NCBI GenBank assembly: GCA_025059775.1
Contig: JANXCW010000003.1
Location: 80,284 to 144,283, forward strand
Direction of reading: 5' to 3'
Source: Armatimonadota bacterium
Lineage (GTDB): Bacteria; Sysuimicrobiota; Sysuimicrobiia; Sysuimicrobiales; Sysuimicrobiaceae
Length of the DNA stretch: 64,000 bases
Below, piece after piece: positions 18,700 through 49,926 of the stretch (the first letter of the stretch is position 1; every line of letters begins with the position of its first letter). The position numbers and the translations under genes were made by a program. The notes under the pieces were generated by a model. It made no database searches and had not been told where the DNA came from. It was given only the letters and a program-made list of their open reading frames with translations.

Positions 18700-18714
18700 G
18701 CGGCAGCGGTGGGT

Positions 18715-18790
18715 GGCCCCATCGTCTAGAGGCCTAGGATACCGCCCTCTCAAGGCGGAGACGGGGATTCGAATTCCCCTGGGGCCACCA
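18715..18790 (+). tRNA. tRNA-Glu (anticodon CUC), CCA encoded
   Basis: Acceptor stem GGCCCCA/TGGGGCC, anticodon stem CCGCC/GGCGG with loop CTCTCAA (CTC), T-loop ATTCGAAT, discriminator A, then CCA. Confidence 0.9.
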
Positions 18791-20076: not shown

Positions 20077-20241
20077 CCCGTCCGGGAAACCGCCGTGGAG
20101 CCGTCGAGAAGCCGGCGGTAGACCGCCCGACAGCGGTCGGGGCCCACGCGTTGGCAGGAAGGGGGATCCTGTTCGTAGAAGTCCCGCATCCAGACGGATT
20201 CCATGCCTCGGAGGCGAGAGGTGCGGGCACACCGGGTGGTG

Positions 20242-20769: not shown

Positions 20770-20834
20770 GTTGAGCAGGGTTGCGCGGCCCCGTGGCCAA
20801 TTCTCGTCCTGGAGGATGCCCAGGAGGACTTTCC

Positions 20835-27567: not shown

Positions 27568-27574
27568 CAGCCAG

Positions 27575-27650
27575 TTGACAAAATTCCAGGGGGTTTGCTG
27601 TACTGAAGCCGATTGTTCTAAATATCGGATAATGTCCGGATATCCGAACA
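27575..27650 (+). promoter_or_regulatory. AT-rich promoter/operator region: TTGACA -35-like box plus clustered CGGATA / TATCCG repeats
   Basis: TTGACA at 27575-27580, followed by ATCGGATAATGTCCGGATATCCGAAC containing the palindrome CGGATATCCG and a direct CGGATA repeat. Lies between the IclR stop and the ALDH start. Confidence 0.35.
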
Positions 27651-27698
27651 CCCCCCAGGGGAAGGTACCCCGGGGAGGATGGGTGGGAGGATCACGGG

Positions 27699-29159
27699 AT
27701 GCGGGGCGTGGAGGTCCAGGAGGTTCTGAACTGCGTGGGTGGGGTGTGGAAGCGGCCCCAGGGGCAGGAGGTCCTGCCCGTGTACAACCCCGCCACCGGG
27801 GAGGTCATCGCGCGGGTGGTGACGAGCAGCCCGGAGGACGTGGACCGGGCGGCCCTGGCCGCGGCCCGCGCGGGTGCGGAGTGGCGCCGAACTCCGCCCA
27901 CGGAGCGGGTGCAATACCTGTTCCGGTTGAAACACCTGCTGGAGGAGAACCTGGAGGACCTCGCCCGCACCATCACGGAGGAATGCGGGAAAACGTATGC
28001 GGAGGCCGTAGGGGAGCTGCGGCGGGGCATCGAGAACGTGGAGGTGGCCTGCGGGATCCCCAGCCTCATGCAGGGGTACAACAACGAGGACATCGCCCGG
28101 GGTATCGACGAGTACATGTTTCGGCAGCCCGTGGGCGTGGTGGCCGCCATCACCCCGTTCAACTTCCCTGGGATGATCCCCCTGTGGTTTTTGCCGTACG
28201 CCATCGCGTGCGGCAACACGTTTATCGTGAAACCGTCTGAGAAGACGCCGCTGACGATGCAGAAGCTCATGCGCCTGGTGGAGCAGACAGGGCTTCCGCC
28301 GGGCGTGGTGAACGTGGTGAACGGGGCGAAGGAGACGGTAGACGCCCTCCTGGATCACCCGCTGATCCGGGCCATCAGCTTCGTGGGCTCCACCCCCGTG
28401 GCGAAGTATGTGTACGCACGGGCCGCCGCGGGGGGCAAGCGCGCCCAGTGCCAGGGTGGAGCGAAGAACCCCGTGATCGTGCTCCCGGACGCGGATCTGG
28501 AGTGGGTACCCCGGGCCGTGGCCGATTCCGCCTTCGGGTGCGCGGGGCAGCGGTGCCTGGCGAGCTCGCTGGCGGTGGTGGTGGGCGAAGCGCAGGGGCG
28601 GTTTCGGGAGGCCATCGCAGACCTGGCCGCCTCCCGCCGGGTGGGGTACGGGCTGGATCCGGGAGTGGAGATGGGGCCGGTGATCCGGCGGGAGAGCAAG
28701 GAGCGCATCGAGGGACTCATCGGCAAAGGCGCGGAGGAAGGAGCCCGGATCCTGGTGGACGGACGGGGCGCTCGGATCCCTGGATATGAGGGCGGCTTCT
28801 TCGTGCGGCCCACGGTGCTGGAGGACGTCCCGCCGGAAGGTCTAGTTGCCCGCACGGAGATCTTCGGACCGGTGCTGGGCCTGATCTATGTGCGGGACCT
28901 GGACGAGGCCATTCAGCTGGTGAACCGGGGCCAGTACGGGAACATGGCCTGCCTGTTCACCCGCAGCGGGGCCGCGGCCCGGAAGTTCCGCTATGAGGCG
29001 CAGGTGGGCAACATCGGGATCAACGTGGGGGTGGCCCAGCCCATCGCCTTCTACCCCTTCGGGGGCATGAAGGAGAGCTTCTTCGGCGACCTCCACGGCC
29101 AGGGGCGGGACGCGGTGGAGTTCTACACGGAGAAGAAGATCGTGGTGGAGCGGTGGTAG
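27699..29159 (+). CDS. CoA-acylating methylmalonate-semialdehyde dehydrogenase-like aldehyde dehydrogenase
   Basis: GGGAGGA RBS. ALDH catalytic region ([12 protein letters not shown]..., [11 protein letters not shown] with catalytic Cys) and an MmsA-like overall pattern. Confidence 0.85.
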
Positions 29160-29182
29160 TTCCCCGTTGACGGCACCCGAGG

Positions 29183-30046
29183 ATGAAACCGGCGCCGTTT
29201 CGGTACGTACGGCCGCAGACCCGCATGGAGGCCATGGAGGCGCTTGCCCGCTACGGGGAGGACGCCAAGGTGCTGGCGGGGGGGCAGAGTTTGGTGCCTC
29301 TGATGAATCTGCGGCTCGCCCGCCCCAAGGTGTTGGTGGACATCAACCGCGTCGCGGAGCTGGGAACCCTGGAGCGGCGGGATGGAGTGCTGATCCTGGG
29401 AGCCCTCGTCCGGCACCGGCAGGTGGAGCGGGATGTGAGGGTAACGGAAGCCTGTCCCATCCTGAGTCGGGCCGCAGCCCACATCGGGTTTCCCGCCGTC
29501 CGGAACCGCGGGACCGTGGGAGGAAGTCTCGCCCATGCGGATCCCGCGGCAGAACTCGGTTGCGTGCTTCTCGCCACGGGGGCCGTGGTGGTGCTGGAGT
29601 CCACAGACGGCCGACGGGAAGTGCCGATCGAAGATCTGTTCGTGGGTCCCTACACCACCTGCATCCGCCCTGAGGAACTCCTGGTGGAGGTCCGGGTACC
29701 CGTGTTCGGAGAGACCACCCGCTGGGGATTTGCGGAGTTCACCCGCCACGAGGGTGGGTTCGCCCTAGCCCTGGCCGCCTGCGTACTCCACCTGGACGGG
29801 CAGGGCAGGGTGGCTGCTGCCCGGGTGGCGGTGGGCGGTGCAGGACCCGTTCCGGTAAGGCTTCGCGAGGCCGAGCAGGTCCTACAGGGCGCTCCCCTCT
29901 CGGAGGAGCGGGTGGCCGAGGCTGCCTCCTTCGCCTGCGCCGTGGAGGGCTACGACGACGTCCACGCGCCCGCCTGGTACCGCCAGCGGCTGGCAGGCTG
30001 GCTCGTACGCCGGGTGCTTCAACAGGCCGTGGGAGAGGAGATGTAA
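29183..30046 (+). CDS. Molybdopterin dehydrogenase FAD-binding subunit (CoxM/XdhB-like medium subunit)
   Basis: MKPAPFRYVRPQT..VLAGGQSLVPLMNLRLARP...AVRNRGTVGGSLAHADPAAE matches the FAD_binding_5/CO_deh_flav_C family. Confidence 0.85.
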   Translation: MKPAPFRYVRPQTRMEAMEALARYGEDAKVLAGGQSLVPLMNLRLARPKVLVDINRVAELGTLERRDGVLILGALVRHRQVERDVRVTEACPILSRAAAHIGFPAVRNRGTVGGSLAHADPAAELGCVLLATGAVVVLESTDGRREVPIEDLFVGPYTTCIRPEELLVEVRVPVFGETTRWGFAEFTRHEGGFALALAACVLHLDGQGRVAAARVAVGGAGPVPVRLREAEQVLQGAPLSEERVAEAASFACAVEGYDDVHAPAWYRQRLAGWLVRRVLQQAVGEEM

Positions 30047-30540
30047 TGGACCGTATCTCCATCGCCCTGTCGGTCAACGGCAAGCCCTACCAGTTGGCGG
30101 TAGAGCCGCGCCGCCTGTTGGCGGACGTCCTGCGCCGCGATCTGGGGTTCACGGGCGTGCATCTGGGGTGCGAGCACGGGGTGTGCGGCGCGTGCACCGT
30201 GCTCCTGGATGGGGAGGTGGTGCGTTCCTGCCTGATGTTCGCGGTGCAGGCGGACGGATATGAGATCCTTACGGTGGAGGGGCTGAACACCTCCGGGGAA
30301 CTTCACCCCGTCCAGCGGGCGTTCATCGAGGAGTTCGGGTTCCAGTGTGGGTTCTGCACGCCCGGCATGATCCTCTCCGCATACCGCCTGCTGCAGGAGC
30401 ATCCGAATCCCTCGGAGTACGAGATCCGTCGTGCTCTTGCGGGCAACCTGTGCCGCTGCACGGGATACGTGGATATTGTGCGGTCCGTTCAGCGCGCTGC
30501 TGTGCTCCTCACGCAGAGGGAGGCATACCGTGCTCCCTAG
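30046..30540 (+). CDS. (2Fe-2S)-binding small subunit of a molybdenum hydroxylase (CoxS-like)
   Basis: [15 protein letters not shown] (plant-type ferredoxin cluster) and QCGFCTPGM...CRCTGY (second cluster). Start overlaps the upstream TAA by 1 nt. Confidence 0.9.
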
Positions 30541-32887
30541 CGGCCGGTACGTGGGCCAGCGCGTCCCCCGTTGGGAGGACCGTCGGTTCGTGGAGGGCCG
30601 GGGACGGTACCTGGATGACCTCAGTCTTCCGGATCAGGTAGAGGTCGCTTTCGCCCGCAGTCCTTACGCCCATGCGCGCATTCGGCGCATCGACCTACAG
30701 GCCGCCCGGAGCCATCCGGAGGCGATCGGGGTGTATGCGTGGGAGGATCTGCGGGACCTCCTGCGTCCCTACTGGACCATGCCGCGGGGTCCTATCCGGC
30801 AGGCGCGCGTCACACCCCTGGCTAGCGAAAAAGTGCGGTGGGTCGGAGAACCGGTGGCCGTGGTGGTGGCGCGGGATCGGTATGTGGCGGAGGACCTGTG
30901 TGAGCTCGTGACGGTGGAGTACGAGCCGCTTGCCCCGGTGGTAGACGCGCTGGAGGCGATGAAGCCCGACAGCCCCCGGCTGTACGAGGAGTGGCCGGAC
31001 AACGTGGTCTCCCACCAGACCTTCCAGGCGGGGAATCCCGAAGCAGAGCTCAGGGGCTGTGCCGTAGTGGTCCGGAAGCGCTTCCGCAGCAATCGGGTCA
31101 CCGCGGTGCCCCTGGAGGGCCGGGGAGTTCTGGCTCGCTGGGACCCGCGGGAGGAAACCCTCACGGTGTGGATGGGGCACCAGGATGTGCACCTCGCCCG
31201 GGCAGTGCTCTCCGAGATCCTGGGCTTGCCCCTGAGCCGGATCCGCGTGGTCAGCCCGGACGTGGGGGGAGCCTTCGGAATCAAGTTGCCCATCTATCCG
31301 GAGGAGATGGTGGTGTGCGCCCTCTCAAGGCTTTTGGGGCGGCCCGTGAAGTGGGTGCAGGATCGACGGGAGAGCCTGCTGGGCGACACGCACGCGCGGG
31401 AAGCCGTGGTGGATGTGGAGGCGGGCTTCGACGCCGCGGGGAAGCTCCGGGCCATGCGGATCCACGTGATCAGCGATGCGGGCGCCTACGCGGTGGCGGG
31501 GCGGGGTCCCATCATCGAGGGCAGCATGCTGGCCCGGGAGCTCCCGGGACCGTACGATCTGCGCCACTACGCCTACACCCTGGACGTGGTGATGACCAAT
31601 AAGGCACCCGTGGCCGTGTACCGGGGCGTGGCCATCCCCGTGAGTACCTTTGTCATGGAACGGGTGATGGACCTCGCCGCGGACGCCCTCCAGATGGACC
31701 CCGCGGAGATCCGGCGCCGGAACCTCATCCGCACGTTCCCCTACGCGACGGTCACCGGGCACGTCTACGACGCGGGTCAGTACCTGGAGGGCCTGGAGAA
31801 GCTGCTGGAACTCGTGGACTACGGAAGGTGGAGGGCGGAGCAGGCGCGGCTGCGGGAGCAGGGGCGCTACCTGGGCGTGGGGATCTGCTGTCTTGTGGAC
31901 GCCACCGCCCGGGGAGGCGGGTTCTACGGTCGGCTGGGGCTGAAGGCGGCCACCCAGGAGGGCTGCATCCTCCGGGTGGATCCCTCCGGCGGGATCATCG
32001 CGGCTTTGGGGACCACCACGCAAGGGCAGGGGCTGCACACGGCGCTCGCGCAGCTCATCGCGGACACCCTCGGGGTTCCCCTGGAGCGGGTCACCGTGGT
32101 GATGGGGGATACCGCCACCACCCCATATGGCGGAGGAGCCTGGGCCAGCCGGGGGGCCGTGGCGGGTGGAGCCGTGGCCCTGCTGGCGGCCCGGAGGTTG
32201 CGGGAGAAAATCCAGCACATCGCGGCCCACCTGCTGGAAGCCGCGCCGGAGGACATCGAACTGGCGGAGGGACGTGCCTTTGTGCGGGGTACCACGGCCC
32301 GCAGTCTGTCGCTGGAGGAGATCGCCCACACCGCCTACTTCGTGGCCGTGGACCTGCCCGCTAGAATGGAGCCAGGCCTGGAGGTGATGGTCCACTGGGA
32401 GCCGGAGATCCCCGCCACCTTTGCATATACGGCGCAGGCCATGGTGGTGGAGGTGCAGCCCGAGACGGGGGCCGTGAACATTTTGAAATACGTCGTGGTG
32501 GAGGATTGCGGCCCCATCATCAACCCGGGGCTCGTGGACGGGCAGCTGCGGGGCGGAATCCTGCAGGGCCTGGGCCAGGCCCTCTACGAGGACCTCGTGT
32601 ACGACGCCCAGGGGCAGCTGCTCACCTCCACCCTCCTGGACTACCTCCTTCCCGGGTTCTGTGAGGCGCCGGAAGTGGAGATCCACCACCTCTCGACCCC
32701 GTCCACGCGGACCGTGGGGGGGCTGCGGGGGATGGCGGAGAGTGGGACCGCTGGTGCGCCCGCGGTGCTGGCGAATGCGGTGGCGGATGCCCTCAAGCCG
32801 TTCGGAGCGGAAGTCACCGCCCTTCCGCTCAGTCCCGCGCGGGTGGCGGAGCTGATACGGGGTCAGAAACCGACGAAAGGAGGGTGA
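30530..32887 (+). CDS. Molybdopterin-binding large subunit of a xanthine-dehydrogenase-family hydroxylase (not a canonical CO dehydrogenase)
   Basis: GTG 30530 after GAGGGAGG. Ald_Xan_dh_C/C2 architecture. The active-site loop reads AVYRGVAIP, not the CODH form I AYRCSFR or form II AYRGAGR. Confidence 0.8.
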   Translation: MLPSGRYVGQRVPRWEDRRFVEGRGRYLDDLSLPDQVEVAFARSPYAHARIRRIDLQAARSHPEAIGVYAWEDLRDLLRPYWTMPRGPIRQARVTPLASEKVRWVGEPVAVVVARDRYVAEDLCELVTVEYEPLAPVVDALEAMKPDSPRLYEEWPDNVVSHQTFQAGNPEAELRGCAVVVRKRFRSNRVTAVPLEGRGVLARWDPREETLTVWMGHQDVHLARAVLSEILGLPLSRIRVVSPDVGGAFGIKLPIYPEEMVVCALSRLLGRPVKWVQDRRESLLGDTHAREAVVDVEAGFDAAGKLRAMRIHVISDAGAYAVAGRGPIIEGSMLARELPGPYDLRHYAYTLDVVMTNKAPVAVYRGVAIPVSTFVMERVMDLAADALQMDPAEIRRRNLIRTFPYATVTGHVYDAGQYLEGLEKLLELVDYGRWRAEQARLREQGRYLGVGICCLVDATARGGGFYGRLGLKAATQEGCILRVDPSGGIIAALGTTTQGQGLHTALAQLIADTLGVPLERVTVVMGDTATTPYGGGAWASRGAVAGGAVALLAARRLREKIQHIAAHLLEAAPEDIELAEGRAFVRGTTARSLSLEEIAHTAYFVAVDLPARMEPGLEVMVHWEPEIPATFAYTAQAMVVEVQPETGAVNILKYVVVEDCGPIINPGLVDGQLRGGILQGLGQALYEDLVYDAQGQLLTSTLLDYLLPGFCEAPEVEIHHLSTPSTRTVGGLRGMAESGTAGAPAVLANAVADALKPFGAEVTALPLSPARVAELIRGQKPTKGG

Positions 32888-32892
32888 GGCGG

Positions 32893-34119
32893 ATGAAAAT
32901 CACACGGCGGGAGTTCCTGAGAGGTGCGCTGGCAGGAGGGGCAGCCCTGGCTGTCCCGGAGGCTCTGCGCTCCATCGCCCATGCGGCACCCCGGGAGCCC
33001 ATCCGCATTGGGTTCCCCGCCCCGCTCACGGGAGCCTTTGCGGACGAGGCGAACTACATGGTACAGGGAGCCACCCTGGCGGTGGAGGAGTTCAACCGGG
33101 CCGGGGGTGTGCTGGGCCGGCAGGTGGAGCTCCTCGTGCGGGACGATAGGCTCAGCCCAGATGAGGGAGCCCGGCGTGCGCTGGAGCTCATCGAGCGGGA
33201 GCGGGTGCACTTCCTGGCGGGCGTGCTCTCCGCCGCGGTGCAGCTCGCGGTGAACGAGGTGGCCAAGCGCCACCGCCGGATCTTCGTCTCCACCAGCCAG
33301 TCGGACAAGATCGTCATGCCTCCGGATTTCAGCCCGTGGACCTTCCACGAGGCCCTCACACCCTGGATGACCTCCACCGCCCTGGCCCGGTATGTCCTGC
33401 GGGAGGGCCGCGGAAAGCGGGTGTACATCCTCTATGCAGACTACGCCTACGGACAGGAGCACACCGCCGCCTGGCGCCGCGTGATCGGGGAGGTGGGAGC
33501 GACCCTGGTGGGGGTGGATCCACACCCCCTCGGTACCACGGACTACTCCGCATACCTGCCGAAGATCGTGGCAGCCCGTCCTGACGTGCTGGTGCTGAAC
33601 AACTTCGGAAGGGACATCGTGAATTCCGCCAAGCAGGCGGTGGAACTGGGCCTCAAGCAACGGGCGCAGATCGCGGTTCCCATCATCCCTACCGCCGCAG
33701 CCCTGGAGGCGGGTCCGGAGGTGCTCGGAGACGTGGTGTGTGCCTCAAGCTACTGGTGGGAGGTCCAGGAGCGGATTCCCAAGGCGAAGGAGTTCAACAC
33801 GAAGTTCAGCCGGCGCTTCAACCGGGTGCCCTCGGACTACGCGGCCTACGCCTACAGCGGCGTGCGGGAGCTACTGGAGGCCGTGCAGCGGACCGGAACC
33901 ACGGACAGCGACCGGGTGGCAAAGGCCATGGAGGGACGCCGCTACGCCCACTACAAGGACACCCAGTACTGGCGCGCGTGCGACCACCAGTCCGTCCAGA
34001 CCATCTTCCTCCTGCGGGGACGGGAGCGGCCGCGGGGGCCTTATGGGCTCTTCGACATCATCGCCACTGTGGAGGGGGAGCGCGTGATCCCCAGCTGCGA
34101 GGCCCTGGGACACCGCTAG
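32893..34119 (+). CDS. Branched-chain-amino-acid-type (Liv-family) ABC transporter substrate-binding protein, Tat signal
   Basis: MKITRREFLRGALAGGAALAVPEA signal, then the periplasmic binding fold of the LivJ/LivK family (..IRIGFPAPLTGAFADEANYMVQGATLAVEEFN..). Confidence 0.85.
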   Translation: MKITRREFLRGALAGGAALAVPEALRSIAHAAPREPIRIGFPAPLTGAFADEANYMVQGATLAVEEFNRAGGVLGRQVELLVRDDRLSPDEGARRALELIERERVHFLAGVLSAAVQLAVNEVAKRHRRIFVSTSQSDKIVMPPDFSPWTFHEALTPWMTSTALARYVLREGRGKRVYILYADYAYGQEHTAAWRRVIGEVGATLVGVDPHPLGTTDYSAYLPKIVAARPDVLVLNNFGRDIVNSAKQAVELGLKQRAQIAVPIIPTAAALEAGPEVLGDVVCASSYWWEVQERIPKAKEFNTKFSRRFNRVPSDYAAYAYSGVRELLEAVQRTGTTDSDRVAKAMEGRRYAHYKDTQYWRACDHQSVQTIFLLRGRERPRGPYGLFDIIATVEGERVIPSCEALGHR

Positions 34120-34141
34120 GGGAGGAGACGAGGCGGTCCCC

Positions 34142-35005
34142 GTGAGCGGGCAAGCCCTGTTGCTGCAGCTCGTGACGGGCGTGGTGGTAGGTGCCATCTG
34201 GGTGATCGTGGCCATTGGGCTTTCCCTTATTTTCGGGATCCTGCGCATTGTGAACTTCGCCCACGGCGCCTTCTACATGCTCGGAGCATACCTGGCCGCC
34301 TTCGCCGTCGGCTGGACCGGACACTTCTGGATTGCTCTCCTCGTGGCTCCCTTGAGCATGGCTGCCTTCGGCGTGCTGGTGGAGCGGGGACTGATCGGGC
34401 GGCTCTACGGCCGGGGCCTTGTTTACAGCGTGCTGGCCACCTACGCGGTCAGCCTGGTCGTGATCGAGGGGGTCAAGATCCTGTGGGGAACCGTGGGCCC
34501 TCAGTTCCGGGTGCCCGCGGAACTGGCGGGCATGGTGAACCTGGGGTTCAGTCTCTTCCCCAAATACCGGTTGTTCGTGCTCCTGGCTACAGCCCTCACG
34601 GTGTTGGGCGTGTGGTGGTGGCTGCACCGCACGCCCATGGGGCTCTTTGTCCGGGCCGCGAGCCAGGACCCTCTGATGACGCAGGCTCTGGGGGTGGACA
34701 TCGCCCGGGTGCTGGCCGGCGCCTTCGGCGCAGGGGTCGCCCTGGCGGGGCTAGGAGGGACTCTGGCGGGGCCCCTGCGGGGCGTCTTCCCGGAAATGGG
34801 GCTCGATATCCTCGTGGAGTCCTTCGTGGTCGTGGTCATCGGAGGGATGGGGAGCCTGCTGGGCGCGGTGGTGGCAGGGCTGCTGGTGGGTGTGGTTCAA
34901 AGCTTCACCTTCCTCCTGGCCCCGGTGTTCGCGCACGTGGTCCTCTTCCTCCTCATGATCGCCACCCTGCTGGTTCGGCCCCAGGGTCTGTTCGGCACGG
35001 AGTGA
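34142..35005 (+). CDS. Branched-chain amino acid ABC transporter permease (LivH-type)
   Basis: GTG 34142. Polytopic LivH-like permease (..IVNFAHGAFYMLGAYLA..). Confidence 0.85.
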   Translation: MSGQALLLQLVTGVVVGAIWVIVAIGLSLIFGILRIVNFAHGAFYMLGAYLAAFAVGWTGHFWIALLVAPLSMAAFGVLVERGLIGRLYGRGLVYSVLATYAVSLVVIEGVKILWGTVGPQFRVPAELAGMVNLGFSLFPKYRLFVLLATALTVLGVWWWLHRTPMGLFVRAASQDPLMTQALGVDIARVLAGAFGAGVALAGLGGTLAGPLRGVFPEMGLDILVESFVVVVIGGMGSLLGAVVAGLLVGVVQSFTFLLAPVFAHVVLFLLMIATLLVRPQGLFGTE

Positions 35006-35014
35006 GGGGTAGGC

Positions 35015-37502: not shown

Positions 37503-37518
37503 GAACAGGAGGGAGCGC

Positions 37519-38274
37519 ATGCACCAGGAATACCGGGATCACGTGGTGGTGGAGCTCTTCGGAAAACGCATTCACGTGCTGGACCTTTCCCGGGAGATCG
37601 GGCCACACATCCCTGTCTATCCCGGCCACATGCGGGTGGCCACGTGGTGGCACCTGACCCACGAGGACGTCCGGAGGCTGCGTCTGCCGGCGGATTCCCC
37701 CTTCGGAGGATACGGGGTGTTCGGGATCGCCATGTGCGACCACATATCCACGCACGTGGACGCGGTCTACCACTTCAACCCCCAACGCCCGGAGAAGACC
37801 GTGGACCGAATCCCCCTGTCGCAGCTCATCACACCCGGAGTGTGGATCGATGTGAGCTGGGTGCCTCCCCGTCAGCACATCCGGCTTGCGGACGTGCAGC
37901 GAGCTCTGAGGGAAGCGCAGGTGGAGCTCCGCCCGGGCGTCACCCTCCTGTACTACACGGGAGCCGCACGGTACTGGGAAGATCCCTATCGGTTCCTGAC
38001 AGAGTACCCGGGCCTCGACGAGGAGGCCAGCCGCTGGATCCTGGATCAGGGAGTGGTCAACGTGTGCACGGACGCTCCCAGCACGGACAACCCCGCGGAC
38101 CTGAGCTATCCCAACCACAGGGTGCACGGGGAGCGGGAGGTGATCCACACGGAGATCGTGCACAACATCGAGCGCATCCCCCGACACGAGGGGTTCTACG
38201 TCATGTTCCTGCCCCTACGGTTCGTGGGGCTGTCGGGCTCCCCGGTGCGCGCTTTGGCCCTCTGGGAAGAGTAA
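37519..38274 (+). CDS. Cyclase-family protein (kynurenine formamidase / arylformamidase-like metal hydrolase)
   Basis: ATG 37519 after AGGAGGGAG. Cyclase-family His-rich motif region (..MCDHISTHVDAVYHF..) and later conserved HTE. Confidence 0.75.
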   Translation: MHQEYRDHVVVELFGKRIHVLDLSREIGPHIPVYPGHMRVATWWHLTHEDVRRLRLPADSPFGGYGVFGIAMCDHISTHVDAVYHFNPQRPEKTVDRIPLSQLITPGVWIDVSWVPPRQHIRLADVQRALREAQVELRPGVTLLYYTGAARYWEDPYRFLTEYPGLDEEASRWILDQGVVNVCTDAPSTDNPADLSYPNHRVHGEREVIHTEIVHNIERIPRHEGFYVMFLPLRFVGLSGSPVRALALWEE

Positions 38275-38298
38275 AATCAACGAAAGGAGGGGGTGGAG

Positions 38299-38481
38299 AT
38301 GCCTGTTATCCGCGTGAGCTCGTTCCCGCAGTCCAAGGAGACCCGCAAGGCCCTGGCGGAGGAGATCACGGAGGTAGTGCACCGCCACACCCAGGTTCCC
38401 AGGGAGTACATCTGGGTGATCTTCGATCCCGTCCCTCAGGAGAACTGGGCGGTGGCGGGTCGCCTGATCTCGGAGCAGTAA
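38299..38481 (+). CDS. 4-oxalocrotonate tautomerase-family protein (Pro-1 tautomerase)
   Basis: ATG 38299 gives an N-terminal M-PVIRVSSFP with the catalytic Pro at position 2. AAAGGAGGGGG RBS 6-8 nt upstream. ~60 aa, the family's typical size. Confidence 0.75.
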   Translation: MPVIRVSSFPQSKETRKALAEEITEVVHRHTQVPREYIWVIFDPVPQENWAVAGRLISEQ

Positions 38482-38499
38482 GCGGACTGCGCCGCGAAG

Positions 38500-39273
38500 G
38501 TGGATCCGAAAGGGACCGCGCGGTTCTCCCTGGAGGGCAAACGGGCCCTGGTGACGGGGGCGAGCCGGGGACTCGGGGAGGCCATCGCGGTGGGCCTCGC
38601 GGAGGCGGGAGCCCACGTCGCGGTAGCGGGGCGGAGTGGGGCGGACCTGGAACGGGTCGCCCGGCGGATCCAGGAGGTGGGACGACGAGCGGTGGTGGTG
38701 CAGGCGGACGTCACCAGGGTCCAGGACGTCCAGCGTATGGTGGCGGAGGCGGAGGAGCGACTGGGTCCTCTGCACATCCTGGTGAACAACGCGGGGATCA
38801 ACCTCCCGCGGCCCGCCCTGGAGGTCACGGAGGAGGAGTGGGACCTGGTCCTGGATACGAACCTCAAGGGCCTGTTCTTCGCGGCGCAGGCCGCGGGCCG
38901 GCGGATGGTGGAACGGCGCTACGGCCGCATCGTGAACATGGCCTCGCAGATGGGGTTCGTGGGATTCTACTTCCGGGCTGCGTACTGCGCCAGCAAGGCG
39001 GGGGTCGTGAACCTCACGCGGGTGCTCGCCGTAGAGTGGGCGCCGTATGGTGTGACGGTGAACGCAGTGGCGCCGACCTTTGTGGAGACCCCCATGACCC
39101 GGGGCATGCTAGAGGATCCCTGGTTCCGGGAGGAGGTGCTGCGCCGGATTCCCCTGGGCCGTTTGGCGGACCCTCAGGACGTGGTGGCCGCGGTCCTGTA
39201 TCTCGCCTCGGATGCCGCCGCCATGATTACGGGGCACACGCTCCTGGTGGATGGAGGCTGGGTCGCTTGGTGA
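38500..39273 (+). CDS. Short-chain dehydrogenase/reductase (SDR)
   Basis: KRALVTGASRGLGEAIAVGLAEAGAHV (TGxxxGxG), NNAG, catalytic YCASKAG. GTG 38500 start has a weak RBS. Confidence 0.8.
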   Translation: MDPKGTARFSLEGKRALVTGASRGLGEAIAVGLAEAGAHVAVAGRSGADLERVARRIQEVGRRAVVVQADVTRVQDVQRMVAEAEERLGPLHILVNNAGINLPRPALEVTEEEWDLVLDTNLKGLFFAAQAAGRRMVERRYGRIVNMASQMGFVGFYFRAAYCASKAGVVNLTRVLAVEWAPYGVTVNAVAPTFVETPMTRGMLEDPWFREEVLRRIPLGRLADPQDVVAAVLYLASDAAAMITGHTLLVDGGWVAW

Positions 39274-39283
39274 GGAGGAGGCC

Positions 39284-40561
39284 GTGCGGGAATACCTGAA
39301 GCGCGCTCTGCCGAAGGTGGAAGGGGACCGACGCACGGTGGAGGAGACGGTGCGCGGGATCCTGGAGGACGTGCGGCGGCGGGGGGAAGAGGCGGTGCGG
39401 GAGTACTCCCGCCGGTTCGATGGGTGGGATCCTCCGCGATTCCGGGTGACGGAGGAGGAGGTCCAGCGGGCCCGTCGGATCCTGCCGGGCCAACTTCTGG
39501 AAGACATCGAGTTCGCCGCGGAGCAGGTCCGGGCGTTTGCCCGCCTCCAACGGGAGACCCTGCAGCCCTTGGAGACCGAGATACGGCCTGGAGTGATCCT
39601 GGGACACCGACACATTCCCGTCGCTTCCGTGGGGTGCTACGTGCCAGGGGGACGGTACCCCCTCATCGCCTCCGCCCTCATGAGCATCATCACTCCCAAG
39701 GTGGCGGGGGTGGAACGGGTCGTGGCATGTGCCCCCCCACGGGGGGAGGGCATCTACCCCGCCACCCTGGTGGCCATGGCGGTGGCGGGAGCGGATGAGA
39801 TCTACTGCCTGGGCGGCGTACAGGCCCTTGCGGCCATGGCCTACGGGATCCCGGAGATCGAACCCGTGGACATGATCGTGGGCCCCGGTAACGCGTACGT
39901 GGTGGAGGCGAAGCGACAGCTGTTCGGGACCGTAGGCGTGGATCTCCTGGCGGGCCCCACGGAGATTCTCGTCATCGCGGACGATAGCGCGGACCCCCAC
40001 GTGGTGGCCGCGGATCTCCTGGGCCAGGCGGAGCACGGTCCGGACTCCCCGGCGGTGCTGGTGACCACGGATCGCCCTCTCGGCGTGCAGGTGCTGGAGG
40101 AGGTGGAGCGGCTCATTCCTCAACTGCCCACTCGCGAGATTGTCCAGGTCTCGTGGCGGGACCGCGGAGAGGTGATCTGGGTGGACTCCAGAGAGGAGGC
40201 GGTGGCGGTGGCGGACGAGTACGCACCGGAGCACCTGGAGGTTCAGACCCGCGACCCCTCCTGGTACCTGGAGCGGCTCCGGAACTACGGGACGCTCTTT
40301 TTGGGTGAGGAGTCCACGGTGGTGTACTCCGACAAGGCCATCGGCACCAACCACATCCTGCCCACGGGTCGCGCGGCCCGCTTCACGGGAGGGCTGTGGG
40401 TGGGGAAGTTCCTGAAGACGGTGACCTACCAGCGCCTGAGCCGGGAGGCCAGCGTGGAGATCGCCCGGCGGGCCGCGGGCATCTCGGAGGCGGAGGGGAT
40501 GATGGCCCACGCCTACACCGCGCGCTTGCGGATCGATCGGTACACGGAACCTGTGCCCTGA
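39284..40561 (+). CDS. Histidinol-dehydrogenase-family (HisD-like) NAD-dependent dehydrogenase, probably not in histidine biosynthesis
   Basis: GTG 39284 directly after GGTGAGGAGGAGG. HisD-fold signatures (..GCYVPGGRYPLIASALMSIITPKVAGV.., ..GPGNAYVVEAKRQLFGTVGVDLLAGPTE.., ..AEHGPDS..). An upstream in-frame ATG at 39251 would overlap the SDR by 23 nt. Confidence 0.75.
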   Translation: MREYLKRALPKVEGDRRTVEETVRGILEDVRRRGEEAVREYSRRFDGWDPPRFRVTEEEVQRARRILPGQLLEDIEFAAEQVRAFARLQRETLQPLETEIRPGVILGHRHIPVASVGCYVPGGRYPLIASALMSIITPKVAGVERVVACAPPRGEGIYPATLVAMAVAGADEIYCLGGVQALAAMAYGIPEIEPVDMIVGPGNAYVVEAKRQLFGTVGVDLLAGPTEILVIADDSADPHVVAADLLGQAEHGPDSPAVLVTTDRPLGVQVLEEVERLIPQLPTREIVQVSWRDRGEVIWVDSREEAVAVADEYAPEHLEVQTRDPSWYLERLRNYGTLFLGEESTVVYSDKAIGTNHILPTGRAARFTGGLWVGKFLKTVTYQRLSREASVEIARRAAGISEAEGMMAHAYTARLRIDRYTEPVP

Positions 40562-40588
40562 AGGCTGCATCGGGAAGGAGGGAGAGCG

Positions 40589-41029
40589 GTGGACATCCGG
40601 TCGCTGCAACACTGCAGCCTCGTGGTGCGGGACCTGGAACGCTCCCGGTGGTTCTACGGAACCGTCCTGGGGCTCGAGGAGATCCCGCGGCCCTCCACCT
40701 TCACCTTCCGGGGGGCATGGTTCCGGCGAGGGGGTGCGGAAGTACACCTCATCCTGGCGGAGGACACCACGGCTCCGCCGGGCTTTCCGGACGCGGGGAG
40801 CGCGAAGCGCACGGGTCTTGCCACCCATTTCGCCTTCGAGGTGGCGGACCTTGAGGCGGCCCGCGCGGAGCTCAGCCGGGCCGGGATCCCCATCGTGGGA
40901 GGTCCCATGCCGCGGGGCGATGGGGTGATGCAGATGTACGTGGAGGACCCGGACGGCTACCTAATTGAGCTCTTCCAGCGTACCCCCGAAGGGGTGGGAG
41001 GCCCGGAGCGGGGGGCGGTACGAGGATAG
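40589..41029 (+). CDS. VOC-family (glyoxalase/bleomycin-resistance/dioxygenase fold) protein, single domain
   Basis: GTG 40589 after GGGAAGGAGGGAGAG. LQHCSLVVRDLERSRWFYGTVLGLEEI... matches the VOC fold. Confidence 0.7.
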   Translation: MDIRSLQHCSLVVRDLERSRWFYGTVLGLEEIPRPSTFTFRGAWFRRGGAEVHLILAEDTTAPPGFPDAGSAKRTGLATHFAFEVADLEAARAELSRAGIPIVGGPMPRGDGVMQMYVEDPDGYLIELFQRTPEGVGGPERGAVRG

Positions 41030-41034
41030 GGGCC

Positions 41035-42264
41035 GTGCTCCGGAGGCCTCTGCGGGTCGCGGTCGCGGGGGGATCCCTGGGGGGACTCAACGCGGGGCTG
41101 TGGCTCCGCTCCATCGGCTGTGCGGTCACCGTTTACGAGCGCTCCTTGCACCTCCTGGAGGGTCGAGGAGTTGGGATCGTCCTGCATCCTGCCACCGTCC
41201 GGTACCTGGTGCGCCACGGGATGGCGCTTCCCTCGTTTGCGGCAGCGGTAGGTAAGCTACGGTATCTGGACCGCGCGGGTACGGTGGTCCACGAGAGTCC
41301 CTGCCGCTACTGGTTCGCCTCGTACTCCTCCCTGTACCGTGCGTTCCTTGGGTTTTTCGGGCGGGAGCGGTACCGCCTGGGCTGTGAGGTCTTGGCTTAC
41401 GAGGAACGGAGGGACGGAGTCCGGGTGCGGCTGGCGGACGGGACCGAGAAAAGCGCGGATCTTCTCGTGTGGGCGGACGGCGTCCGATCCACAGGCCGTG
41501 GGTGGATCGCGCCCGGAACTTCCTTCCGTTATGCGGGATACCTGGCCTGGCGGGGAACCGTGGGGCCGGGAGAGGTTTCTCCCCAGACCTTCGCGTGGCT
41601 GTCGGAGTCCATCACGTACTTCCTCCTGCAGCCCGGCCACGCCCTGGCTTACCCCATCGTGCAGGCGGATGAGGCCCGGGGAGCGGGCAGCCGGATCAAC
41701 TGGGTATGGTACTGGAACGTGGAGGCTGCCCATCTGGACGCGTTCATGACGGATCGGGCGGGCAATCGGCAGCCCGTCTCGGTTCCTCCGGGAAGCGTTC
41801 GGGAGAACTTGGTGGAGCAGCTGCGGGAGCGGGCGCGTTTGGAGCTCCCGCCGCAGCTGGCGGAGGTGGTTGTCGGGACTGTCCGGCCGTTCCTTCAGCT
41901 CATCGGCGACGTGGAGGTCGGGCGCATGGCCGACAGACGGACCTGCCTGATCGGAGACGCGGCCTTCGTGGCCCGACCGCACATCGCCGCGGGCACCGCG
42001 AAGGCCGCGGAGGACGCGTGGCAGCTCAGCCAGTTCCTGAGCCAGTGCCGGGGGGATGTGGAGGCGGCCTTAGAGCTCTGGGAGCCCCGACAGCGGGACC
42101 TGGGTGCGCGTGTGGTGGCCCGCTCCCGGGAGGTGGGCCAGCGGATGCAGGTGGAGGGCACGTGGCCCGTGGGGGCCCCCCTGCCTTATGGTCTGTACGA
42201 GCCGGGGGATAGCGAGTTCCAGGACGGGGGGGAGTCCGGGATCCGGCAGGGGAGGGGAGCATGA
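41035..42264 (+). CDS. Class A FAD-dependent aromatic-ring monooxygenase (salicylate / hydroxypyridine hydroxylase-like)
   Basis: GTG 41035. N-terminal RVAVAGGSLGGLNAGLWLRSIGCAVTVYER (GxGxxG), DG motif (LLVWADGVRS), C-terminal GD..H FAD contact (LIGDAAFVARPHIAAGTAKAAEDA). Confidence 0.8.
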   Translation: MLRRPLRVAVAGGSLGGLNAGLWLRSIGCAVTVYERSLHLLEGRGVGIVLHPATVRYLVRHGMALPSFAAAVGKLRYLDRAGTVVHESPCRYWFASYSSLYRAFLGFFGRERYRLGCEVLAYEERRDGVRVRLADGTEKSADLLVWADGVRSTGRGWIAPGTSFRYAGYLAWRGTVGPGEVSPQTFAWLSESITYFLLQPGHALAYPIVQADEARGAGSRINWVWYWNVEAAHLDAFMTDRAGNRQPVSVPPGSVRENLVEQLRERARLELPPQLAEVVVGTVRPFLQLIGDVEVGRMADRRTCLIGDAAFVARPHIAAGTAKAAEDAWQLSQFLSQCRGDVEAALELWEPRQRDLGARVVARSREVGQRMQVEGTWPVGAPLPYGLYEPGDSEFQDGGESGIRQGRGA

Positions 42265-43094
42265 GCGCACGGCGGTTCTCCCCAGTGACGCGGCTGGTGG
42301 GTCTGGTGTTCGCAAGCCCGGATCCTGCCAGACAGGTGCGGTTCTACCGCACCGTGATGGGCTTCGCCGCCCTCGGACCGAACCGGGTAGCGGCCGGCCC
42401 TGCACCCTGCTTTCTGGAGTTCCAGCCCGCTCCGGAGCCCGCCCTCCTGTGCACGGTGTATGAGGTGGAGGATCTGCGGGAGGCCCGCGGGCACCTAGAG
42501 GCCGCGGGGGTTCCCTACGAGGAGAGACCGGAGGGCCTGGCCCTGGAGGACGTGGAGGGGCGTCGGTTGGTACTGCAGCCCCCGCAGGAGGTTCCGGATC
42601 CTACCCCGCTGGCCTATCCGGGGCCATATCTACAGCACGTGACCTACACCACCCGGAACCCCGTGGGGGTGGCGGAGTGGTACGAGCGGGCTTTGGGGTT
42701 CCGGGTGTCCGACTGGCAGGGTCGCAACTTCGTGTGGCTCCGCTGCGGCCCCCCGCACCACGTGATGGCCGCGGTACGTGGACCGGAGGTGGGCCTGGAC
42801 CACTATGCCCTCGAGGTGGCTAGTTGGGAGGACATGAAGCGGTGGGCGGACCACCTGGCGACCCGTGGGATTCCCCTCATCTGGGGACCGGGCCGCCACG
42901 GGCCCGGTAACAACCTCTTCCTGTTCTTCCACGACGCGGACCGGAACCGGGTGGAGCTGTCCGCGGAGCTGGAGCGGTTCTACGACGAGCGGGCCCACTA
43001 CCCGCCCCGGGAGTGGCCTGATAGCCGCTGGGCCGCCAACCAGTGGGGCCCGCAGCCGGATTGGCGAAGGCCGGAGGGAGGCCCGGTGGAGTAG
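42261..43094 (+). CDS. Two-domain VOC-family extradiol ring-cleavage dioxygenase-like protein
   Basis: ATGA overlap. Two tandem VOC modules, the second with the HHVMAAV...HYALEV...GPGRHGPGNNLFLFFHDADRNRVELS pattern of catechol-2,3-dioxygenase-like enzymes. Confidence 0.7.
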   Translation: MSARRFSPVTRLVGLVFASPDPARQVRFYRTVMGFAALGPNRVAAGPAPCFLEFQPAPEPALLCTVYEVEDLREARGHLEAAGVPYEERPEGLALEDVEGRRLVLQPPQEVPDPTPLAYPGPYLQHVTYTTRNPVGVAEWYERALGFRVSDWQGRNFVWLRCGPPHHVMAAVRGPEVGLDHYALEVASWEDMKRWADHLATRGIPLIWGPGRHGPGNNLFLFFHDADRNRVELSAELERFYDERAHYPPREWPDSRWAANQWGPQPDWRRPEGGPVE

Positions 43095-43136
43095 GAGCAT
43101 CGGAGCGTAACGAGGACGTCGACCTAGCGTGGTAGG

Positions 43137-43658
43137 ATGACAGGAGTAAACGGGGAACGGTCGATGGATGCTCCCACCTTCCGTCGGATCATGGGGCAGT
43201 TCGCCACGGGGGTGACCATCCTCGCGGCGAGAGCGGGGAACGTGATACACGGCATGACCGCCAATGCCTTTACCTCCGTGTCCCTCCATCCCCCTCTCGT
43301 GCTCGTGTGCGTGGCGAACGCCTCCCGGACAAAGCAGGTGCTGGACAGGGCGGGCTGGTTTGCGGTAAGCATTCTGGCCGGTGACCAGGGGGAGGTGGCG
43401 CGGATCTTCTCGAACCCGGACCTGGACGGAACGCAGCGCTTCGCCCGGGTGCGGTGGCGGGCAGGGCAGAGCGGGGCCCCTATCATCGAGGATTGTCTCG
43501 CCTACCTGGAGTCCCGGGTCGTGGCCACCTACGAGGCCGGTGACCACACCGTGTACCTGGGGGAGGTGGAGCGGGGGGAGGTCGTCCGGCCGGAGGGAGC
43601 GCCCCTCGTCTTCTTTCGCGGGGACTACGGGATCCTGAACGGGAGGGGGGAAGCATGA
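43137..43658 (+). CDS. NAD(P)H-dependent flavin reductase (HpaC/RutF-like)
   Basis: FRRIMGQFATGVTILAARAGNVIHGMTANAFTSVSLHPPLVLVCV matches Flavin_Reduct. An alternative ATG at 43164 is in frame. Confidence 0.8.
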   Translation: MTGVNGERSMDAPTFRRIMGQFATGVTILAARAGNVIHGMTANAFTSVSLHPPLVLVCVANASRTKQVLDRAGWFAVSILAGDQGEVARIFSNPDLDGTQRFARVRWRAGQSGAPIIEDCLAYLESRVVATYEAGDHTVYLGEVERGEVVRPEGAPLVFFRGDYGILNGRGEA

Positions 43659-44878
43659 AGGTGTTCGTCTTCGATCTCCTGCCCTATGCGGAGCACCTGG
43701 ACCATCTGAAGAGAGGAGACGAGCTGCCGTGGCCGCTGCCGAGGAGGTACTTTAAGCCTGAAGTGGCGGTCCGCACGTACGAGGAGCACCTGGAGGCGTG
43801 GGAGGAGATGGAGCGGCTGGGCTACGACGGGGTGGGGTTCAACGAGCACCACACCTCCCCGTACGGCCTCATGAACTCTCCCAACCTCATGGCCGCGGCC
43901 CTGAGCCAGCGCACCAAGCGCCTACGCATGCTGATCTACGCGAACCTCCTGCCCCTCCACAACCCCCTCCGGCTCGCGGAGGAGATCGCCATGCTCGATT
44001 GCCTCACAAACGGCCGGATCATCGCGGGGATCGCCCGAGGTATTCCCCGGGAGTACCGGGTGTACAACATCCCCTATGCGGAGTCCCGGGAGCGGTTCGA
44101 GGAGGCGTGGGAGATCCTGCGGGGCCTGTGGACGGAGGAGATCTTCAGCTACGAGGGGAAGTACTGGACCTTCAAGGATGTGGCCATCTGGCCGAGGCCG
44201 GTCCAGCAGCCTCACCCTCCCGTGTGGGTGCCCGTGACCACCAGCAAGGAGACCATCGAATTCGCGGCCAAGTACAACCTGCCCATTACCCCGGGGCTTG
44301 GGGGCCGCGGGAGTCGGGGGCTACAACAGGACATCATCCGGTACTACGCGGCCCAACTGGCGGTCCACGGGCGTCGGATCACCCCGGAGCACCTGGTCAT
44401 TAGCGTGGACGTGTACGTAGCCGACAGCAAGGAACAGGCCTTCCGGGAGGCGGCACCGTACGCCCTGTACTTCTACCGGACGCTCTTCAGCCACGGGAAC
44501 GTGACGGACACCCGGGTGCAGCGGGAGATGGGGTACGTGAGCAAACATGCCCACGACTACATCCGGCCCGAGAACCGGACAGCGGCCCTCATGGAGCGGG
44601 AGTGGTACCGGGGGATGACCCCCGAGCGGCTCCGGCAGCATGTGGAGCACCTCCCCTGGGGAAGTCCGGAGGAGGTGCGGGAACGGATCCTCGAGGAGGC
44701 GGAGGCCCTGGGGGCGAACACCGTCCTCGTGCACATGAACCGGGGGGCCATGCCCCACGAGATGTTCTTAAACCAGCTCCGGCGTTTCGCCCGGGAGGTG
44801 CTGCCCGCCCTCCACGCCCATGAGGTACAGAAGGTGCCGTTGGAGGAAGAAGAAGTACCGGCCTCACGAAGGGAATAG
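43655..44878 (+). CDS. LLM-class (luciferase-like) flavin-dependent monooxygenase
   Basis: ATGA overlap with the flavin reductase. GYDGVGFNEHHTSPYGLMNSPNLMAAAL... matches the bacterial-luciferase-like TIM barrel. Confidence 0.85.
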   Translation: MKVFVFDLLPYAEHLDHLKRGDELPWPLPRRYFKPEVAVRTYEEHLEAWEEMERLGYDGVGFNEHHTSPYGLMNSPNLMAAALSQRTKRLRMLIYANLLPLHNPLRLAEEIAMLDCLTNGRIIAGIARGIPREYRVYNIPYAESRERFEEAWEILRGLWTEEIFSYEGKYWTFKDVAIWPRPVQQPHPPVWVPVTTSKETIEFAAKYNLPITPGLGGRGSRGLQQDIIRYYAAQLAVHGRRITPEHLVISVDVYVADSKEQAFREAAPYALYFYRTLFSHGNVTDTRVQREMGYVSKHAHDYIRPENRTAALMEREWYRGMTPERLRQHVEHLPWGSPEEVRERILEEAEALGANTVLVHMNRGAMPHEMFLNQLRRFAREVLPALHAHEVQKVPLEEEEVPASRRE

Positions 44879-44905
44879 CGAACAAACCCATAGGGGGTGA
44901 GGGGG

Positions 44906-46429: not shown

Positions 46430-46435
46430 CCGAGG

Positions 46436-47368: not shown

Positions 47369-47376
47369 GGGGGGAG

Positions 47377-48327: not shown

Positions 48328-48334
48328 GGAGATA

Positions 48335-49908: not shown

Positions 49909-49926
49909 GGAAAGGAGGTGGGGGAA

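Follow-up and report, generated by a model that had tools for sequence, protein, structure and literature searches.

The window analyzed here is a 64,000-nt stretch from the genome of an uncultured hot-spring bacterium of the Candidatus Sysuimicrobiota (CSP1-3), and our subject is the run of predicted catabolic genes at positions 27568-44878 together with the genes coupled to it. These genes encode, among other enzymes, a molybdenum (Mo) hydroxylase, an ABC importer, a cyclase-family metal hydrolase and a short-chain dehydrogenase/reductase (SDR). A previous, sequence-only reading had placed them in a single supercluster in which Mo hydroxylase, flavin hydroxylase, extradiol dioxygenase and a formamidase-like enzyme act in turn. 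We find instead that two or more modules lie side by side and do not form one pathway, and that only a small core recurs elsewhere. Our leading interpretation, which we hold tentatively, is that the stretch consists of two adjoining, translationally coupled catabolic modules, module 1 (27.6-43.1 kb) and module 2 (43.1-51.8 kb). With equal reserve, we propose that module 1 would hydroxylate its substrate and then, assisted by the SDR, open a hydroxylated (hetero)aromatic ring by cyclase-type hydrolysis. The ring would most likely be a pyridine- or pyridone-type N-heterocycle or a closely related polyhydroxy-aromatic compound.

Genes were called with a method based on GC3 (GC content at third codon positions), and every gene from 26740 to 44878, as well as the flanking genes of the window, was scanned for Pfam and NCBIfam families. 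Each family named in the sequence-only reading was found with strong scores at the coordinates given for it, and the only gene missing from that reading's list is the single-domain VOC gene at 40589-41029. The features of the stretch are as follows.

26740-27567 (+): IclR-family regulator (PF09339, PF01614)
27568-27698 (+): leader with a -35-like TTGACA and a candidate operator palindrome
27699-29159 (+): CoA-acylating (methyl)malonate-semialdehyde-type aldehyde dehydrogenase, ALDH (TIGR01722)
29183-30046 (+): Mo-hydroxylase FAD subunit (PF00941, PF03450)
30046-30540 (+): Mo-hydroxylase 2Fe-2S subunit (PF00111, PF01799)
30530-32887 (+): Mo-hydroxylase large (MoCo) subunit, CoxL/Qor/Kdh clade (Pfam, solved relatives)
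32884-37502 (+): HAAT/Liv-type ABC importer, five genes (Pfam)
32884-34119 (+): importer binding protein with a TAT signal
34142-35005 and 35015-36031 (+): importer permeases
36028-36777 and 36774-37502 (+): importer ATPases
37519-38274 (+): cyclase-family metal hydrolase (PF04199)
38299-38481 (+): 4-oxalocrotonate tautomerase-family protein (4-OT), 60 aa, Pro1 after Met (PF01361)
38500-39273 (+): classical SDR (Pfam/NCBIfam, solved relatives)
39284-40561 (+): HisD/HpsN-like four-electron alcohol dehydrogenase, GGRYP[LM] subfamily
40589-41029 (+): single-domain VOC (glyoxalase-fold) protein (PF00903)
41035-42264 (+): class A FAD monooxygenase resembling 2,6-dihydroxypyridine 3-hydroxylase (DHPH) (PF22607, PRK07236)
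42261-43094 (+): two-domain VOC protein, putative extradiol-type dioxygenase (PF00903 in the C-terminal domain)
43137-43658 (+): flavin reductase (PF01613)
43655-44878 (+): luciferase-like monooxygenase, LLM (PF00296)

A conserved core around the cyclase

No gene of the locus is better conserved than the cyclase, which is 55-70% identical across five phyla and anchors the conserved core. By this gene, the closest public loci are those of 'Candidatus Sysuimicrobium calidum' (95% identical), the JGI hot-spring contig L001 and 'Candidatus Fervidifonticultor secundus' (87%). The complete 17-kb order is kept only in two near relatives, L001 and L005, at 82-96% amino-acid identity. Relatives at 76-87% retain the 2Fe-2S subunit, the Mo large subunit, the importer and the cyclase in this order and differ in the rest; in three of them (L006, L087 and L090) a large subunit 73-80% identical to ours occupies the equivalent position, and the importer is colinear with it and with the cyclase. 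The order of large subunit, importer and cyclase, in some cases followed by the SDR, is preserved, with identities of 73-87%, both in another genus and in unbinned contigs. Thus the gene order envisaged in the sequence-only reading holds in other genomes for its Mo-hydroxylase, importer and cyclase core, and in full only for the two near relatives. Outside this core, L006 carries an M24 creatinase-like gene in place of the ALDH gene. In L087-L089 the cyclase is followed by the SDR, a small VOC gene, a second Mo hydroxylase and the flavin hydroxylase (63% identical in L087, where the cyclase is 85% identical), and the HisD-like, 4-OT, two-domain VOC and LLM genes are absent. The second Mo hydroxylase of L087 (12179-15992) is a divergent three-subunit enzyme, its large subunit 41% identical, whose genes have the small VOC on one side and the DHPH-like monooxygenase on the other.

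Co-occurrence was counted in 61 distant loci whose cyclase is 50-75% identical to ours, or 69 loci with the close relatives included. The distant loci come from Bacillota (including Syntrophomonas), Actinomycetota, Chloroflexota, Dormibacterota and Rokubacteria. The SDR accompanies the cyclase in at least 44 of the 61, the HisD-like dehydrogenase in at least 13, the DHPH-like hydroxylase and the Liv permeases in at least eight each and the Mo-hydroxylase subunits in at least five to eight. ALDH, 4-OT, single-domain VOC, two-domain VOC, flavin reductase, LLM, IclR and OppA genes accompany it in none (0/61), a pattern at odds with a single supercluster. The SDR gene lies less than 400 nt from the cyclase gene in 30 of the 69 loci; in the window 225 nt separate them, an interval whose only gene is that for 4-OT. 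It is thus with the SDR and not with the dioxygenase that the cyclase is conserved, and its similarity to arylformamidase amounts to only 42 bits; neither point supports the earlier order of dioxygenase and formamidase. The 4-OT gene was seen in close relatives only and the two-domain VOC gene in L001 and L005 only, and small VOC genes near the cyclase occur also in L087, L084, L011 and L053. In other lineages the cyclase-SDR pair stands beside an iron-containing alcohol dehydrogenase and a tungsten aldehyde oxidoreductase, or beside an iron-containing alcohol dehydrogenase and an ALDH. Such alternative systems for converting an alcohol or aldehyde to an acid fit the view that the HisD-like enzyme would oxidize a newly formed chain end.

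The wider surroundings of the cyclase vary. In strict anaerobes (L047:4657-15348 and similar Syntrophomonas loci; L012 and L083) the cyclase-SDR pair is found in sigma-54-regulated operons of two types: one with a major facilitator superfamily transporter, a 4-hydroxybutyrate-type CoA-transferase, an acyl-CoA dehydrogenase, MaoC and an HpaB/AbfD-like gene, the other with the tungsten oxidoreductase and the iron-containing alcohol dehydrogenase. A richer variant of the core in an Anaerolineales metagenome-assembled genome (L018:4937-20328) runs from LacI through a Mo hydroxylase with a split large subunit, cyclase, SDR, UPF0261, MBL-fold protein, class II aldolase, HisD-like enzyme, and 2-oxoacid dehydrogenase E1a and E1b to a second cyclase and E2. 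This combination of MBL-fold protein, class II aldolase, SDR and HisD-like enzyme prompted us to consider vitamin B6 degradation, which we rejected; there is no pyridoxal dehydrogenase among the solved relatives of the window's SDR, and MHPC oxygenase scores only about 30 bits against the flavin hydroxylase. Five Actinomycetota/Paenactinomyces loci with cyclase, SDR and HisD-like genes (L013, L020, L053, L063 and L082) recurrently carry Amidohydro_2, isochorismatase-like, RidA and M24 creatinase-like genes, as well as CocE-type hydrolase, ALDH and BMP- or NMT1-type ABC binding proteins, which suggests that their substrate is rich in nitrogen. Plasmid contexts of remote cyclase homologs (a Bradyrhizobium ABC-cyclase-amidase arrangement, Arthrobacter NicSoilE8, Paracoccus and Indioceanicola) proved unrelated.

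Enzymes of module 1 and the proposed route

Among proteins of solved structure, the Mo large subunit is closest to Mycobacterium smegmatis CoxL (549 bits), quinoline 2-oxidoreductase (Qor; 521 bits) and Kdh of the nicotine pathway (399 bits), whereas the Sulfolobus enzyme scores 358 bits and xanthine dehydrogenases far lower. The three-subunit Mo/FAD/2Fe-2S architecture is that of Qor (1T3Q) and of form I CO dehydrogenase (1FFU, 8UEM), with full-length scores of 520-550 bits. However, the active-site loop, AVYRGVAI(P), does not contain the copper-binding cysteine of the CO dehydrogenase loop (AYRCSFR or AYACSFR) and is near the AYRGVGF of Qor, and the 170-residue active-site segment scores 117 bits with Qor and 107 with Kdh versus 101-102 with CO dehydrogenases. 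Identity to KdhC is 33%. We rejected CO dehydrogenase as an assignment given the missing AYxCSFR motif and the scores of both NCBIfam models for that enzyme, which are below cut-off. These motifs and scores exclude both CO dehydrogenase and plain xanthine dehydrogenase as the identity of the Mo enzyme; its place with CoxL, Qor and Kdh speaks against the outcome that the sequence-only reading had named as a refutation, an ordinary xanthine or aldehyde dehydrogenase.

The cyclase keeps the metal motif HISTHVDAVYH of its family and has invariant residues of its own, YPGH and WxHLxH. It is remote from isatin hydrolase (42 bits) and from arylformamidase; the latter assignment (KynB) was rejected, the cut-off being 223 bits. 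Two precedents exist in the same Pfam family. PKC of plasmid pAO1 and its Rhodococcus homolog HpoH are proposed to open 2,3,6-trihydroxypyridine hydrolytically (PMC6214936), and in Clostridium scatologenes an SDR, phloroglucinol reductase (PGR), and an adjacent Mn-dependent cyclase-family C-C hydrolase (DPGC) act in turn on phloroglucinol, the first reducing the ring and the second opening it by hydrolysis (PMC10470551). In both systems hydrolysis opens a six-membered ring bearing three hydroxyl groups, and no oxygen is used. Because our cyclase is tightly paired with an SDR and recurs with a DHPH-like hydroxylase and with Mo hydroxylases, its setting matches these precedents.

As in the lower nicotine and 2-hydroxypyridine pathway of pAO1 and Rhodococcus (HpoH, HpoI), a xanthine oxidase-family Mo hydroxylase, a DHPH-type flavin hydroxylase and a PF04199 hydrolase are encoded in one cluster, and the chemistry proposed there likewise leads from hydroxylation to ring opening by hydrolysis (PMC6214936). 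In pAO1, however, kdhC, the PKC gene and dhpH are adjacent and an omega-amidase gene is also present, whereas the window's cyclase is flanked by the importer and the SDR, identities are low (29% over 207 residues to PKC, 33% to KdhC and about 36% to DhpH) and no CN_hydrolase-family 2-ketoglutaramate omega-amidase is found among the scanned window genes. With PGR-DPGC the window shares the adjacency of SDR and PF04199 genes, conserved as a pair in anaerobes and aerobes, and a proposed O2-free opening after the SDR step. It differs in that the cyclase is only 24% identical to the C. scatologenes enzyme and has Tyr and Gly in place of DPGC's Trp20 and Tyr22 (IPRWPY to IPVYPG, as read by eye), in that the 60 best solved relatives of the window's SDR, which passes the cut-off of a glucose-1-dehydrogenase subfamily, do not include clostridial PGR, and in that neither TfD (HADH, 3-hydroxyacyl-CoA dehydrogenase family) nor TAL (BKACE) occurs in the scanned window genes or in the related loci annotated with Pfam.

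The HisD-like protein scores 432 bits with HpsN, the R-2,3-dihydroxypropanesulfonate 3-dehydrogenase (PDB 8V35; roughly 50% identity), and 298 bits with HisD. Aligned to 8V35, it retains the catalytic Glu-His pair (PEHLEV) and the Asp-Lys loop (SDKAIG), and a four-electron oxidation of alcohol to acid is predicted as for HpsN. The HpsN-specific motif is G-R-Y-A/S-H, in which His126 binds the sulfonate (PMC11382572). Unlike HpsN, the window protein reads GRYPL where HpsN has GRYAH, has no His126 and has other genomic partners. In the cluster of cyclase-linked HisD-like proteins (20 ORFs) the His126 position is Leu or Met in all 18 readable motifs, which are mostly GGRYP[LM], with the variants GGRLPM, GGRAPL, GGGYPL and GGLYPL. 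On these motifs the GGRYP[LM] HisD-like proteins are a distinct subfamily. An exact-sequence look-up of the window's protein returned no record.

The remaining enzymes are assigned with differing precision. The ALDH passes the curated model TIGR01722 for CoA-acylating methylmalonate-semialdehyde dehydrogenase (556.9 bits versus a cut-off of 448.5), and a CoA-acylating role is predicted. The flavin hydroxylase passes PRK07236 and has DHPH (2VOU, 244 bits) as by far its best solved relative, at an identity of about 36%, a point in favor of the sequence-only reading. The two-domain VOC protein has as its nearest solved relative 3b59 (82 bits), whose function is unknown. Among named families the importer's binding protein is nearest to urea and amide binders (UrtA, AmiC), with all scores below cut-off. 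The earlier contention that an amino-acid-type importer and an LLM pair have no place in pyridine-ring pathways is thus weak, the importer's binding-protein family including such binders and LLM two-component monooxygenases being known to cleave the rings of pyridine and tetramethylpyrazine.

We infer the substrate class and the order of steps in module 1 from these assignments. The HAAT-type ABC system would import a small organic compound, to which the Qor/Kdh-like Mo hydroxylase would add an oxo or hydroxy group from water and the DHPH-like flavoenzyme another hydroxyl. The SDR would then alter the redox state of a ring carbon, and the cyclase-family metal hydrolase would cut the ring hydrolytically without oxygen, as proposed for PKC/HpoH and shown for PGR with DPGC. 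The HisD/HpsN-like enzyme could next oxidize the resulting primary alcohol or aldehyde end to a carboxylate, and the methylmalonate-semialdehyde dehydrogenase-type ALDH could turn a formyl-acid fragment into an acyl-CoA. The 4-OT, the two VOC proteins and the ALDH would be lineage-specific additions.

Regulation, boundaries and module 2

The IclR gene ends just before the start of the stretch as first delimited (27568), and its own start codon and the stop codon of the preceding ORF share a GTGA overlap. It is followed by a 131-nt leader with a -35-like TTGACA at 27575-27580 and a 16-bp palindrome, GTCCGGATATCCGAAC, at 27634-27649. In the relative L001 an IclR gene occupies the equivalent position, and the leader palindrome is conserved there in perfect form, GTTCGGATATCCGAAC. 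Based on this conservation, the IclR-type regulator probably controls module 1 through the palindrome as a candidate operator, both roles being predictions. The upstream ORF (25169-26743) encodes 524 amino acids with good codon bias, matches no Pfam or NCBIfam family and lies downstream of two sugar-type ABC permeases; it may be an unrecognized solute-binding protein.

As the sequence-only reading described, the genes from 27568 to 44878 are co-directional and tightly coupled, with four-base ATGA or GTGA overlaps at five junctions and gaps of 5-42 nt at the others. However, co-directional and tightly packed genes, including the housekeeping genes gltX and prs, cover nearly the whole window (5-59 kb), and co-directionality is therefore not specific to this stretch. 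Tight coupling continues past both ends, reaching upstream from 26740 to 23377 and downstream from 44878 to 51809; hence these ends are not natural boundaries. Beyond the flavin reductase and LLM genes, which overlap by 4 nt, module 2 contains the following.

44897-48327 (+): Opp-type binding protein and two permeases
48335-49147 (+): SDR-A
49144-49908 (+): SDR-B
49918-50712 (+): alpha/beta hydrolase
50709-51809 (+): zinc-containing alcohol dehydrogenase

Homologs of the LLM at 67-72% identity are common in Chloroflexota and Firmicutes in other contexts, and no specific LLM subfamily model reaches its cut-off. In a Firmicutes metagenome-assembled genome (L094) the LLM gene (69%) is followed by two SDR genes (56-57%) colinear with SDR-A and SDR-B. 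This colinearity, together with the coupling up to 51809, places the LLM pair in a separate module that the end at 44878 had cut, and removes it from the supercluster to which it had been assigned. We regard module 2 as a separate set of oxygenase, hydrolase and dehydrogenases, probably for another substrate. The Opp/Dpp-type genes at 44897-48327 have no adjacent ATPase genes and are inserted between the LLM and the two SDR genes, the latter coming straight after the LLM gene in L094. The Rut pathway, suggested by the LLM, the flavin reductase and a malonate-semialdehyde link, was rejected, since RutA was unmatched and RutF, with a cut-off of 255 bits, reached only 76. A search for a pyridine pyr-type LLM in a plasmid collection gave no informative match.

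An Rfam scan found no riboswitch and only two tRNAs, tRNA-Gln and tRNA-Glu (18626-18790), which follow gltX; a transport and catabolic run starts directly after them. Its first part (18829-22387) encodes a DAO-type FAD oxidoreductase, an ECF S-component, a xylose-isomerase-like TIM barrel and an HpcH/HpaI aldolase. Farther downstream, an operon at 56324-59203 encodes a MoxR AAA+ ATPase, a DUF58 protein and a VWA/BatA protein. In pAO1 the MoxR and VWA genes adjoin the Mo-hydroxylase genes; in the window a distance of 23 kb separates them from those of the Mo enzyme.

Alternative explanations and biological meaning

The nicotinate and picolinate clusters (nicAB-C-X-D-F-E and picA-G) apply a Mo hydroxylase and then a flavin hydroxylase to the pyridine ring. 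One 17-kb operon for a single O2-dependent pathway of this type, with extradiol dioxygenase and formamidase-like cyclase following the two hydroxylases and the HisD-like enzyme and LLM pair as extra steps, would account for the presence and tight coupling of all the families, for their identical order in two close relatives and for a flavin hydroxylase that is DHPH-like by sequence. Yet scans of 26740-44878 reveal no NicX/PicD-type dioxygenase, N-formylmaleamate deformylase, maleamate amidase or maleate isomerase (the NicD, NicF and NicE types); the only dioxygenase candidates there are VOC-fold proteins, and an alpha/beta deformylase, an isochorismatase-type amidase and an isomerase are all absent from module 1. 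Beyond close relatives, the core is never accompanied by the dioxygenase, 4-OT, ALDH, flavin reductase or LLM genes, and even L087, with a cyclase at 85%, keeps Mo hydroxylase, importer, cyclase, SDR, small VOC and flavin hydroxylase and dispenses with the other four genes noted above. Given also that the cyclase is partnered with an SDR and remote from arylformamidase, and that LLM-SDR-SDR is a conserved unit of its own, we consider this pathway improbable. We reject as having almost no probability the catabolism of a sulfonate (dihydroxypropanesulfonate or cysteinolate) around an HpsN ortholog. HpsN is indeed the best solved relative of the HisD-like protein, and the adjoining SDR is reminiscent of HpsO and HpsP, but the sulfonate-binding motif with its His126 (PMC11382572) is replaced in all 18 cyclase-linked homologs with a readable motif and no SuyAB, Xsc or CuyA-type family occurs among the window genes scanned.

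A number of observations weigh against our own proposal and lend weight to two further explanations. That the genes form no functional unit, being unrelated neighbors in a compact co-directional genome with the Mo enzyme a form II 'CO dehydrogenase-like' housekeeping oxidoreductase, would agree with the packing of the window from 5 to 59 kb, which leaves membership in a single operon unproven, with a terminator and promoter scan that gave no signal above chance, and with the poor conservation of most accessory genes alongside the core. Moreover, the Mo subunits of the distant loci are 28-45% identical and possibly not orthologs, and many of these loci are short contigs, making the co-occurrence counts lower bounds. 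Nevertheless, the order of large subunit, importer and cyclase (with or without the SDR) persists in a second genus and in unbinned contigs, the cyclase recurs with SDR, HisD-like and flavin hydroxylase genes across phyla, and a conserved palindrome follows the IclR gene. Chance adjacency is unlikely for the core and a fair explanation for some accessory genes, and for the locus as a whole we find it quite improbable. A rather unlikely yet plausible explanation is a route without nitrogen, via a lactol, lactone, alicyclic compound or polyol, in which the Mo enzyme would be an aldehyde oxidoreductase, the SDR would oxidize a lactol or secondary alcohol, the cyclase would be a lactonase or C-C hydrolase, the HpsN-like enzyme would oxidize the freed primary alcohol to a carboxylate and the ALDH would feed CoA metabolism. 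Archaeal glyceraldehyde oxidoreductase models are the top NCBIfam match for the FAD and Fe-S subunits and the second for the Mo subunit, the SDR passes its glucose-1-dehydrogenase cut-off, HpsN oxidizes a 1,2-diol (PMC11382572) and DPGC, of the same family as the cyclase, cuts C-C bonds (PMC10470551). The main argument for this route comes from strict anaerobes, where the cyclase-SDR pair occurs apart from any hydroxylase, beside the CoA-transferase, acyl-CoA dehydrogenase, MaoC and dehydratase-like (HpaB/AbfD-like) genes or the alcohol dehydrogenase and tungsten oxidoreductase described above, a context that a lactone, alicyclic or polyphenol substrate fits at least as well as an N-heterocycle. 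Family scans found no omega-amidase, deformylase or other nitrogen-releasing enzyme in module 1, the low identities of the cyclase to PKC and DPGC mean that neither activity can be transferred to it, and our analysis assigns the module 1 substrate to a class and not to a compound. Against a nitrogen-free route, all three glyceraldehyde models stay below cut-off and the Sulfolobus enzyme scores lower than Qor and Kdh; the repeated occurrence of the DHPH-like hydroxylase with the cyclase indicates a ring of aromatic or heteroaromatic type; the distant loci are rich in C-N hydrolases (Amidohydro_1, Amidohydro_2, isochorismatase-like, M24 and RidA); and the nearest named relatives of the binding protein bind urea and amides. 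We also know of no lactonase in PF04199.

We therefore retain, tentatively, the proposal of a hydroxylation and SDR-assisted hydrolytic ring opening in module 1 with a separate module 2 beside it. It is also possible, if doubtful, that the cyclase, the SDR and the His126-less HisD/HpsN-like dehydrogenase make up a widespread uncharacterized ring-opening pathway of aerobes and strict anaerobes alike (Bacillota, Actinomycetota, Chloroflexota, Dormibacterota, Rokubacteria and Sysuimicrobiota), parallel to PGR-DPGC and directed at another abundant natural ring compound, for example one resembling hydroxyhydroquinone or trihydroxypyridine. If so, it would add a new specificity to the PF04199 hydrolases and a third substrate class to the histidinol dehydrogenase family.

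The gene families of the locus and the general logic of their use are known, whereas their combination and two of the subfamilies are uncharacterized, and the view of the sequence-only reading that the locus is catabolic and uncharacterized is supported. Literature searches returned no paper describing this cluster or the two subfamilies (PF04199 cyclase and HisD-like), no paper on a cluster of cyclase, SDR and histidinol dehydrogenase, and nothing relevant on genes for hydrolysis of the hydroxyhydroquinone ring. The Sysuimicrobiota have so far been described mainly as chemoautotrophs (PMC11604079); the description paper is silent on aromatic compounds, on coxL, on xanthine and on branched-chain amino-acid transport, and carbon monoxide appears in it only as CODH/ACS and in reference titles. 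If our proposal is correct, the locus points to the use of organic substrates in this phylum. It would also represent a way of opening the ring of a hydroxylated aromatic or N-heterocyclic compound by hydrolysis and without oxygen, spread over many uncultured lineages of soils and hot springs, and would give functions to two large uncharacterized subfamilies, the 'YPGH/WWHLTHE' cyclases of PF04199 and the GGRYP[LM] HisD-like dehydrogenases. Although uncharacterized catabolic loci are common in metagenome-assembled genomes, the cyclase-SDR unit, with or without the HisD-like enzyme, is a concrete and testable lead.

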